64,000 nucleotides of DNA, taken from sequence record NC_070989.1; one strand, 5' to 3'. Below are positions 54,891-56,921 of this stretch, in pieces. This DNA is from Escherichia phage vB_EcoP-CHD5UKE1. Every line of letters starts with the position of its first letter. The first letter of the stretch is position 1. A program made the translations under genes and the position numbers. The notes under the pieces were generated by a model. It was not told the origin of the DNA, searched no databases, and saw only the letters and a program-made list of their open reading frames with translations.

Positions 54891-56921
54891 TTAACCTCTA
54901 TTCAATGAACATTTAGGAGAATTACAATAAACTTGATTCATAGAACCAAGCGTACAACTTTCAGCATCGCGCCACGGAATCTGCTTAAAACACTCTGAGC
55001 AGTATCCGAGGGTTGACCACATGGCTTTGGTGAAGTCAGTGCTTCGGTTTCCGTCGAAGCTGACAACAGTTTTGCGGAGAGCTGTTCGTGATTCAGGAAA
55101 CACACCTGCTTTCTCAGCAGGTTCCTCCTTTTTTGGCTTAGTTGAGATTGCAAAAATACTGTTGCTACGTTTCTCAACATAAGCATCAACAACATCTTCC
55201 AGAGTTATGCCTGTCTGTTTCGCTGAGGAAGGTAATACAGTCATACGACCAATCATATCTTCAGTTACACGTAAAGCAAACTCAGGACGACGGGCGTTTG
55301 TTGTATCTGTTGCTTTAATCCATACATAACCATCTTTGATCGTAGCATTAGATACTTTCTTCTTTACTTCTACAGCGCAGACTTTACAGATATCTTCACC
55401 ACGAAGACGACTAAGTTCATCATCGAACTCATTCTCTGTTTTAACTTCACCGCAGATTTCACAAACACCAATAGGAGTTTCCTCCTCTTCTTCCTCTTTA
55501 GGTTTAGTCAAACCTTCCAGACATTCAGGATGCCAGTAGCATTGATATGCGAAGACTGCTTTAGGTGCATCTTTCCAATCAATGTGTTTGTCACAACCAC
55601 CACAATCACCATGAGAGTGTGCTTCCCAGAATTTACGAGTGATAGTAACGCCATTCTTGTTGACGAAACTATCATTCATATCAAAAGGGATATCATCATC
55701 GAAGTCAGCAGTAGTTGACTCAGGCTCCTTTTTCTCCAGAGATGGGTCAACAAAATGACCTGCTGTGATCACTAAACGAACCATAGCATTAACTTCGGAG
55801 ATGCAGGATACTGTCCCACGGTAAACAATTTTAGGGTCTTTCAGGGCATCCTGATAAGCCTTAATGTCTACGTTATGAACATCACCTTCGATATACTCTT
55901 GAGACTTCTCATCGTAGATATAACCAATCATCTTACCACGAGAAGGAACAGCACCAGCAGTTGCATAAGGAACAAACTCATGCGGAGTGATTTCCACAGT
56001 CATATCTCGGCGAATGTCAATGTTTCGATCGCTTGCGATTTTGTTTTGACTTACCACTGCGTTTCTTCGACGAACGTCTGCCGCTGTCACTCCCGGCTTC
56101 GTGTCGTAAGGATTGCTTGTATTGCTTTTTGAGGAACTTTGATAGTTGCTTTGGCTGTAGTTGTTCGAGTAATAACTGCCCCAACGATTGGCTACCGTAA
56201 AAACCGGAAGCTCGTGGGCGACCTCTTCAACCAGAGTCATGCTGTTGTTTGACATATCAAAGATATATTCTGTACCAACTTTACATTCAAAATGCTCATC
56301 AATACGGTTCTTGTGAGATCTAGAACGCTTCAGAATCCACATCAACATGTCTTCTTCAGAAGCACCAAACCAATCTCTGTTACAACGTGCGAGGTGGAAT
56401 GGACGCTCTTCGTTACGGATGATATGAAGACGGTTATCAGAAGCATCATGCCAGATTAAGGTGAAAGCACCATCCAGCTTTTGAATAGTCTCTGCTGCAC
56501 CAATAGTGTTAATAGAGTGGCAGATGTTCTCACTGTCTACCTCGAAGTTTTTGCTGTCAGGTAACAGATCTTGGTCCATCAAGGTTCCATTATGAACCAG
56601 AGTGATGTTACCATGTTGGAAAGGATGGGCGTTCTTGGCGTTAACTGCACCTTTCGTTGCATGACGACTGTGACCAACAATCCATGAAGGTGCTACAGTG
56701 TAAGCTGTTTCACCAGTGGTGTACTTCTTGTACTCATCTTGTAGGATGAATGCGAAAGAAGGAAGAGCTTCTTTATAAGTGAAGACTTCCTTAGTACTTT
56801 TACGCTGACCAAAGATACCGGAGGAATGTTGTCCTCGGAATACTCCAGCATAAAAGAGTTGGTTAAATACGTCTAAATCAGTGCTTGACAGATTACCGCC
56901 AGCTAATACGATGCCACAAAT
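54891..56921 (-). CDS. class-II (Ntn) glutamine amidotransferase-like domain fused to a large Cys-rich C-terminal domain (about 676 aa); apparent ATT initiation codon preceding Cys
   Basis: Frame is open 112 codons upstream of the track start; begins (ATT)-CGIVLAGG with SRHATKGAVNAKNAHPF and LVHNGTL blocks; AGGTGG RBS 8 nt upstream; in-frame TAG two codons before. Confidence 0.55.
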   Translation of the reverse strand: MCGIVLAGGNLSSTDLDVFNQLFYAGVFRGQHSSGIFGQRKSTKEVFTYKEALPSFAFILQDEYKKYTTGETAYTVAPSWIVGHSRHATKGAVNAKNAHPFQHGNITLVHNGTLMDQDLLPDSKNFEVDSENICHSINTIGAAETIQKLDGAFTLIWHDASDNRLHIIRNEERPFHLARCNRDWFGASEEDMLMWILKRSRSHKNRIDEHFECKVGTEYIFDMSNNSMTLVEEVAHELPVFTVANRWGSYYSNNYSQSNYQSSSKSNTSNPYDTKPGVTAADVRRRNAVVSQNKIASDRNIDIRRDMTVEITPHEFVPYATAGAVPSRGKMIGYIYDEKSQEYIEGDVHNVDIKAYQDALKDPKIVYRGTVSCISEVNAMVRLVITAGHFVDPSLEKKEPESTTADFDDDIPFDMNDSFVNKNGVTITRKFWEAHSHGDCGGCDKHIDWKDAPKAVFAYQCYWHPECLEGLTKPKEEEEEETPIGVCEICGEVKTENEFDDELSRLRGEDICKVCAVEVKKKVSNATIKDGYVWIKATDTTNARRPEFALRVTEDMIGRMTVLPSSAKQTGITLEDVVDAYVEKRSNSIFAISTKPKKEEPAEKAGVFPESRTALRKTVVSFDGNRSTDFTKAMWSTLGYCSECFKQIPWRDAESCTLGSMNQVYCNSPKCSLNRG

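Follow-up and report, generated by a model that had tools for sequence, protein, structure and literature searches.

How could a bacteriophage make an enzyme that needs cysteine as its first residue from a reading frame that has no canonical start codon before that cysteine? The question is raised by a gene on the minus strand of Escherichia phage vB_EcoP-CHD5UKE1 (NC_070989.1), of which we analysed a stretch of 64,000 nucleotides (nt), hereafter called the window. The window comes from a phiEco32- and SU10-like E. coli phage (Kuravirus), and the gene, at 54891–56921, encodes a class-II glutamine amidotransferase (GATase). Translation from an ATT codon had been proposed from the sequence alone. 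This ATT proves by far the best candidate for the start, an assessment backed by comparison over more than 20 lineages. We consider it probable, with good confidence, that the gene gives an AUU-initiated Kuravirus early protein of 676 codons, from which removal of Met would expose Cys1, and that its start site is stereotyped and resembles that of E. coli infC.

An ATT codon in front of the catalytic cysteine

Across the start region the minus strand reads ...ATG AAA GGG TTT ACC CTT CAG GTG GAT TAG AAA ATT TGT GGC ATC GTA.... The ATT (AUU in the mRNA; 56919–56921) stands directly before the Cys1 codon TGT (56916–56918) and exactly 8 nt after a Shine–Dalgarno (SD) sequence, AGGTGG (56930–56935), which is AGGAGG in most relatives with AUU. 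The 8-nt spacer, ATTAGAAA (56922–56929), holds an in-frame TAG (56925–56927) located 3 nt before ATT, and between this stop and the Cys codon there are only AAA and ATT, the latter being the sole codon capable of starting translation. The same TAG closes an in-frame mini-open reading frame (mini-ORF; 56925–56954, minus strand), formed by the first ten codons given above and encoding MKGFTLQVD*. The first canonical in-frame starts, TTG at 56582 and ATG at 56579, come 112 codons after Cys1, and the TTG has no SD in front of it. The stop, start, Cys codon, SD spacing and open 112 codons are all as the original prediction described them, and the motifs that it quoted (CGIVLAGG, SRHATKGAVNAKNAHPF and LVHNGTL) are present in the translation; the predicted N terminus from Cys1 onward is CGIVLAGGNLSSTDLDVFNQLFYAGVFR. 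What it overlooked is the conserved leader, with its hairpin and in-frame mini-ORF, and the recurrence of AUU or AUC throughout the family.

In comparison with relatives from Suseptimavirus and Nieuwekanaalvirus, the 112 codons ahead of the first canonical start show a proportion of non-synonymous differences (pN) of 0.13–0.16 against a synonymous proportion (pS) of 0.70–0.77, which is saturated, and a dN/dS of about 0.075. Judged from these substitutions, the codons appear clearly to be translated and under strong purifying selection. A sequencing error or frameshift is ruled out by 95 independently deposited phage genomes in which the 54-nt leader and ATT are at least 95% identical (at least 99% in 67 of the genomes), and by the recurrence of AUU and AUC in divergent lineages. 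Frameshift or hopping readings of AAAAUUUG were rejected as well, the alternative frames reaching stops within 4–8 codons. The leader has no credible match to a known RNA family such as a riboswitch or frameshift element: Rfam covariance models run over 54000–58500 returned nothing better than E = 2, all far below gathering scores. It was also considered as a phage promoter, but the consensus tAATGTAtA of phiEco32 gp36 (PMC8948821) is absent, and the leader motif is present once in the window.

The class-II domain of N-terminal nucleophile (Ntn) type originally proposed, with its need for Cys as residue 1, is borne out. Residues 1–240 (56199–56918, minus strand) match Pfam PF13522, GATase_6, at E = 1e-14 (55 bits, cut-off 27) and PF13537 at 27.4 bits (cut-off 25). 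Foldseek pairs the domain with the glutaminase domain of GlmS (1xff; TM 0.65, E = 4e-10) and with EgtC (TM 0.69), as well as with PurF and AsnB, at a sequence identity to solved structures of only 15–20%. The AlphaFold model, whose confidence is only moderate here, predicts the four-layer alpha-beta-beta-alpha Ntn fold. All catalytic residues are conserved: the invariant C1, R28, R85, T88, H98, N110, G111 and D128 correspond to C1, R26, R73, T76, H86, N98, G99 and D123 of GlmS, R85, T88 and D128 binding glutamine and N110 and G111 forming the oxyanion hole in the alignment. Cys1-Gly2 is invariant both in 10 and in 14 aligned homologues. The GlmS N-domain, PurF, AsnB and EgtC share this fold, the Cys1 nucleophile, the glutamine-binding Arg/Thr/Asp and the Asn-Gly oxyanion hole, and the phage domain is predicted to be an active glutaminase or gamma-glutamyl-amide hydrolase.

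Across the wider family, AUU or AUC takes the place of AUG at exactly the same position in many divergent phage lineages. We fetched 80 loci from IMG/VR encoding homologues of the N-domain, and in 75 of them the alignment extends to residue 1. Immediately ahead of the invariant Cys, 54 of these have ATG, 14 have ATT, two ATC and four TTG, with one case of ATG-TGC-TGT and no other codon. All AUU and AUC lineages have an in-frame stop 2–18 codons upstream, with no ATG, GTG or TTG between it and the start. Non-canonical starts are scattered over a neighbour-joining tree, on which parsimony requires at least 11 switches between canonical and non-canonical codons, a crude count given the poorly resolved deep nodes. 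The SD is stronger in the AUU/AUC lineages (mean duplex energy −8.6 versus −6.5 kcal/mol in AUG lineages; Mann–Whitney p = 0.001) and is spaced by 8 nt in nearly all of them. The AUU or AUC always lies within the same stereotyped initiation region: first a short hairpin, the 3′ end of which is at −14 to −16, then a strong SD, a spacer of 8 nt rich in A and U, and AUU-UGU-GG. Some relatives, like the window, also have an ORF that terminates 3 nt ahead of the AUU.

The non-canonical start of this gene stands as correct, but it is not new, since phiEco32, SU10 and BASEL phages were already annotated in this way. The coding sequence (CDS) of 676 codons plus stop occupies the same span (54891–56921, minus strand) in GenBank and RefSeq, and is the homologue of phi32_83 (phiEco32, NC_010324) and SU10_085, both annotated as 2031-nt CDSs with ATT at the 5′ end. 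The records of Bas86 and several BASEL phages hold an identical 2031-nt CDS with ATT. Over 4.2 kb, the region shares 98.8% DNA identity with vB_EcoP_SU10 and 97.5% with phiEco32; these are the same gene, with no material difference. Altogether 97 phage records match the region, nearly all from Gordonclarkvirinae.

A conserved block and hairpin next to the Shine–Dalgarno sequence

We scanned a metagenome collection with the 18-mer GGATTAGAAAATTTGTGG taken from the window. The scan retrieved kuravirus-like contigs and six further GATase lineages (L113, L121, L130/139, L133/140, L142/129 and L146), the proteins of which diverge right after Cys-Gly-Ile/Leu. The bases (GC)AGGA, which lie outside the search pattern, precede the block in all six, and L089 from IMG/VR is another block-bearing lineage. 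The 22-nt block AGGAGGATTAGAAA-ATT-TGTGG is thus found exactly in front of GATases that are only about 30% identical, and it is sharply delimited, extending roughly from −17 to +8. An initiating 30S subunit covers about this much mRNA. With proteins this divergent, an 8-nt spacer free of selection would not have survived. The 18-mer preceded by GATAGGCGCGTCAATGACG was also seen in eleven metagenome contigs with no long ORF behind it (L106, L108–L110, L114, L126, L131, L136, L143, L145 and L147); despite the conserved flank, this match is probably chance in one family of related contigs.

A hairpin, GAA(A)GGG-UUUA-CCCUUC (56936–56952, minus strand), abuts the SD with its 3′ end, at −15/−16 relative to AUU. 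Leaders were tested over the fixed region from −46 to −13 for a hairpin of at least 3 kcal/mol stability (−3 or better) with its 3′ end at −18 to −13. Of the distinct leaders with AUU or AUC, 16 of 20 have such a hairpin, compared with 3 of 44 with AUG (Fisher 7e-9); among leaders that were not retrieved with the ATT block, the comparison is 8 of 12 against 3 of 44 (4.5e-5). The stems are unrelated in sequence, for example GAAAGGG/CCCUUC in the window, ACAAGGC/GCCUUGU in L151, GCAUGU/ACAUGC in L142 and L146, CCUGA/UCAGG in L121 and CAAGCU/AGCUUG in L089. When seven leaders are aligned without gaps and anchored by sequence, 92.9% of cells are paired and five of the six pairs have changed on both sides, a level of pairing reached by none of 500 shuffles and compared with 26–43% in slid controls. 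A covariance model built from these seven aligned 15 distinct leaders with 90.4% of cells paired and compensatory changes at all six pairs. At the level of these alignments, the covariation points to selection on RNA structure. The hairpins are unlikely to act as terminators or in processing, because they have no U-tracts and are too short for RNase III.

A second, G+C-rich hairpin, GUGCCUCU-GAUAA-AGGGGCAC (56973–56993, minus strand), lies just after the stop codon of the amidoligase gene (57001–57003), inside the early operon and upstream of the GATase leader. GenBank record WFI101126 labels it a 'terminator'; a clear U-tract is missing, and from its sequence it looks like a terminator or an RNA-stability element. 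The motif TTTAAA(T/G)GT(A/T)A(A/T)ATTAGA is found upstream of the GATase gene in L030–L034, in L006 and in the window (56960–56972, minus strand), and is common to 7-11-like phages, which start with ATG, and to kuravirus/BUCT695 phages, which start with ATT. Set against the ATG-type leader, the ATT-type leader resembles a 30-nt insertion flanked by duplicated ATTAGA.

Likeness to infC and competing accounts

We propose that initiation takes place at AUU 56921–56919 with initiator fMet-tRNA, and that subsequent Met removal exposes the Cys1 nucleophile of the Ntn glutaminase. The strong SD and the abutting hairpin would retain the 30S subunit for the time that it needs to use the weak codon; the hairpin might stack on the helix between SD and anti-SD or leave the SD free of other pairing. 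AUU would keep output low and dependent on proofreading by initiation factor 3 (IF3), as it does in E. coli infC, and ribosomes that terminate at the UAG of the mini-ORF may add a reinitiation component. By analogy, we infer that the start site is built for efficient ribosome recruitment, with acceptance of the start codon left to IF3 proofreading.

The infC start region, which has an AUU start, the SD GGAGGA and an 8-nt spacer, reads GGAGGAAUAAGGU-AUU, and the phage block reads GGAGGAUUAGAAA-AUU, with the same SD, spacer and position of the in-frame stop. In infC this stop is the thrS UAA, 3 nt before AUU (UAA-GGU-AUU; PMC3592434), and in the window it is the mini-ORF UAG (56927–56925). A reporter with the infC-type UAA-GGU-AUU produced twice as much as a single-cistron AUU and one-fourth as much as AUG, and reinitiation and de novo initiation contribute about equally at the infC junction (PMC3592434). 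The window differs from infC in having AGGUGG, unlike the GGAGG there, and in its hairpin, which abuts the SD, whereas the nearest predicted infC hairpin ends about 8 nt further upstream. Its product is an enzyme and not IF3, so any effect of IF3 would be one of sensing rather than autoregulation. For E. coli pcnB, which encodes poly(A) polymerase, the AUU start limits the output of a potentially harmful enzyme, as cited in PMC3592434. The pcnB start region, unlike that of the window, has no strong SD, abutting hairpin or upstream stop 3 nt away. In its layout, the window also resembles the translational operator of T4 gene 43, where a hairpin that a repressor protein binds directly precedes the SD of a phage early gene. 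In the GATase family, neither loops nor stems keep their sequence from one lineage to the next, which argues against a single sequence-specific binding protein.

A shorter product is what many records assume. If the N-terminal 112 codons were a dead remnant, the sole product would be the 563-amino-acid (aa) protein from TTG 56582 or ATG 56579, as given by automated calls (the largest protein cluster, P0001, with 211 member sequences, is this form without Cys1) and in keeping with the annotation of ECBP2, SU7, EP335 and Aeromonas phage BUCT695 from downstream ATGs, by which the catalytic Cys is lost. SU10 gp85, detected by mass spectrometry with 9 peptides and 23.7% coverage, is likewise listed at 63.8 kDa (PMC4281155). 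That figure is the mass computed for the 563-aa TTG form (76.1 kDa for the full form), and the peptides are uninformative about the start because the protein searched was the short form. The 112 codons evolve at a dN/dS of about 0.075 and contain the invariant Cys1, R28, R85, T88, H98, N110 and G111; a product without them would have neither the nucleophile nor half of the Ntn fold, and would start at a TTG with no SD, all of which makes the chance of a dead remnant next to negligible. Read-through of the UAG would instead yield a pro-enzyme, MKGFTLQVD-X-KI-Cys..., that cleaves itself to expose Cys1, as B. subtilis PurF and other Ntn hydrolases do. The mini-ORF does share its frame with the enzyme, and Ntn enzymes can carry propeptides. 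We consider this route very improbable nonetheless: no suppressor tRNA for the in-frame UAG, or any other tRNA, was found in the window, most AUU/AUC lineages lack a start codon ahead of the in-frame stop, the mini-ORF peptide is not conserved beyond Kuravirus and BUCT695, and AUG lineages begin directly with Met-Cys. The mini-ORF could also serve obligate termination–reinitiation, with ribosomes finishing its nine codons (56954–56925) at the UAG, restarting 3 nt on and hardly ever initiating de novo at AUU. Consistent with this are its frame and its end 3 nt before AUU, its retention in BUCT695 as MKGLTLQAD*, the full-length HNH genes that end at the same UAG in L133 and L146, and the stop-plus-3-nt arrangement of infC, about half of whose reporter output comes from reinitiation (PMC3592434). 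However, L121, L130 and L113 carry the block without a start-bearing ORF ending at that UAG; L151 has UAU for UAG and its upstream AUG is in a different frame, so the mini-ORF is not conserved in frame there; the mini-ORF AUG has a weak SD in the window and none in BUCT695; and the distance from the upstream gene's stop to AUU ranges from 4 to 246 nt across the AUU lineages. Obligate reinitiation is in our view quite unlikely, and the mini-ORF is probably not essential, because the block occurs without it in L121, L130 and L113 and with UAU in L151. Its end, ...CAG GTG GAT TAG, is 1 nt off the ...CAG GAG GAT TAG with which the HNH genes of L133 and L146 end, and the mini-ORF may serve in coupling, descend from the 3′ end of a homing-endonuclease gene, or do both.

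A different account concerns why the block is conserved at all. HNH endonucleases may insert repeatedly at the amidoligase–GATase junction and co-convert their own 3′ end, the SD and ATT, so that the AUU block would be kept mainly by hitch-hiking; ATT may in addition protect the allele from cleavage. HNH genes or remnants indeed adjoin the block on its upstream side in L047, L113 and L146 (one family, 39–46% identical), and in L142, BUCT695, L133 and L140, and an intact HNH_3 gene precedes the TTG-start GATase of L152. L133 and L140 have one GATase allele but different endonuclease genes, and the leaders of kuravirus and BUCT695 are 88.6% identical over 79 nt despite proteins that are 54% identical and branch apart. 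A strict link between HNH insertion and a non-AUG start is nevertheless broken by Pseudomonas phage UFV-P2 (L153), which has an HNH_3 insertion together with ATG, and L089, L121 and L130 carry the block with no endonuclease gene. The association is not significant in the unbiased IMG/VR sample (1 of 11 versus 1 of 44), the block is sharply delimited with no fading into its flanks, and the hairpin covaries. Hitch-hiking as the main cause therefore strikes us as unlikely without being far-fetched. The distribution suggests that endonuclease-driven exchange helped to spread the block, which we keep as a lead and not a rule.

Free-standing HNH homing endonucleases have inserted time and again at the amidoligase–GATase junction, in phages that are unrelated to one another. 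The inserted genes belong to an HNH_3+HTH family and to two other HNH types, and BUCT695 (L006) keeps only decayed fragments; in Kuravirus YF01 (L150), an HNH gene lies just downstream of the GATase gene instead. The HNH_3 family is promiscuous, occurring in 1009 phage records. In the window there is no endonuclease gene between the amidoligase and GATase genes, and only the mini-ORF end resembles an HNH 3′ end.

AUU initiation at an infC-like site, which remains our preferred reading, also has points to reckon with. Few leaders in the AUU group have a weaker SD than the window (AGGUGG, −5.9 kcal/mol). The lineages counted are related by descent and thus not independent, and part of the sample was retrieved with the ATT block itself. 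The seven leaders of the covariation analysis were chosen for a common register, and the alignment of 15 was fitted to the resulting model. In its minimum-free-energy fold, the window leader can also pair in another way that would sequester the SD; this hairpin, GGUUUACC/GGUGGAUU, is not supported by BUCT695, where two substitutions disrupt two of its pairs but spare the AAGGG/CCCUU stem. The SU10 proteomics database contained the 563-aa form only, which leaves out the N terminus. Dependence on IF3, finally, is pure inference from the likeness to infC.

The fused C-terminal modules and the amidoligase cluster

The region beyond the GATase domain is about 435 residues long (241–675), in part a disordered linker, rather than the 470 residues first given. 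It had been described as having several CxxC pairs and acidic stretches with no obvious catalytic motif; structure prediction now finds an OB-fold, three invariant zinc modules and a small alpha/beta domain, all on the minus strand. In the model, a disordered S/N/Y-rich linker (residues 241–281) and a helix lead to a well-predicted OB-fold beta-barrel (residues ~300–392; 55743–56021), from which an acidic linker runs to zinc module 1 (residues ~417–470; 55509–55670), with invariant C439, C442, H463 and C466. A zinc ribbon with a helix follows (residues ~482–528; 55335–55475; invariant C486, C489, C511 and C514), and then the small alpha/beta domain (residues ~531–592; 55143–55328; pLDDT ~85), for which no significant structural neighbour was found. 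Zinc module 3 (residues ~615–675; 54894–55076), with invariant C640, C643, C655, C665 and C670, completes the protein and forms an internal repeat with module 1 (BLASTP E = 4e-5), the two sharing the pattern T-x3-W-x4-G-x-C-x2-C-x3-I-x-W-[KR]-D-A.

Pfam gives no match beyond the GATase domain, and the fusion partner stands as uncharacterised and without a known catalytic domain. It is not novel to the window, however: the region occurs in 14 protein clusters only, all from Gordonclarkvirinae or 7-11-like phages, and PHROG 4736 covers the first 516 residues. On the model, the partner is real and lineage-restricted, and in place of a catalytic domain it has recognisable predicted binding modules. 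Through its OB-fold and three zinc modules, the glutaminase would be tethered to a macromolecule that is its substrate or partner.

In RefSeq the product is called L-glutamine-D-fructose-6-phosphate aminotransferase (GlmS), and another label in use is 'glutamine amidotransferase'. The former name is unjustified, because the protein has no SIS domain: Pfam does not detect the C-terminal tandem SIS isomerase domains of GlmS, and the structure predicted in their place is the OB-fold with zinc modules. In contrast to GlmS, PurF and AsnB, the protein has no fused acceptor or synthase domain, this position being taken by the linker, the OB-fold, the three zinc modules and the small alpha/beta domain. 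Genes for an Amidoligase_2 protein, a phiEco32-type COOH-NH2 ligase and an ATP-grasp enzyme adjoin it, and the neighbours also include a GGACT/AIG2-like (gamma-glutamyl cyclotransferase-like) protein and DUF7195. The GATase is predicted to work within this phiEco32-type cluster of ligases, ATP-grasp enzyme and cyclotransferase-like protein. A peptide- or metabolite-ligase role has been predicted for the cluster, which secondary sources attribute to Iyer et al. 2009 (PMC10580990).

The gene lies in a sigma-70 early operon, and the ATP-grasp protein gp82, the GATase gp85, the GGACT-like gp78 and gp86 were all detected in a concentrated SU10 phage preparation (PMC4281155). The SU10 proteome table therefore shows early-cluster products abundant enough in lysates to appear beside virion proteins. 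Just downstream of the GATase gene, at 54655–54888 (minus strand), a gene encodes 77 aa matching DUF7195 (E = 5e-17); it also follows the GATase gene in L151 and L152, and may be a fixed partner of the long-form GATase. In the marine or freshwater loci L089, L090, L091, L065 and L081, a class-I GATase/peptidase C26-like gene (GICRGxQ...HHQ motifs) lies upstream of the class-II GATase gene, and these clusters therefore hold two unrelated glutaminase-type enzymes.

Natural AUU-initiated genes are very rare, with two textbook cases in E. coli, and here about one-fifth of a widespread phage enzyme family uses AUU or AUC within a stereotyped start site. The ATT start of this gene was already in databases; what appears new in the searchable literature is the family-wide use of AUU and AUC, the infC-like site and the covarying hairpin that abuts the SD. 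Mis-annotation is widespread, with many GenBank records placing the start from 10 to more than 100 codons too late, and in L151 the caller's start is a GTG within the SD itself. The OB-fold and zinc modules on a glutaminase suggest a macromolecular, possibly nucleic-acid, target for the phiEco32-type amidoligase cluster. With its natural replicates, the family also lends itself to the study of how a weak start codon is offset by the strength of the SD, its spacing and a neighbouring helix, and it opens the questions of IF3 proofreading as a regulatory input for phages and of the spread of the element as a cassette. As a tentative idea, which we think more likely wrong than right, hairpin-GGAGGA-UAG-AAA-AUU-UGUGG could be a portable, infC-mimicking 'IF3 sensor' that ties glutaminase output to the translational state of the host and travels among unrelated phages with HNH endonucleases that insert exactly at the junction. 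If so, it would represent the first natural AUU/AUC-initiated gene family outside infC and pcnB with a conserved, covarying RNA architecture, and would link the mobility of homing endonucleases to the choice of start codon.

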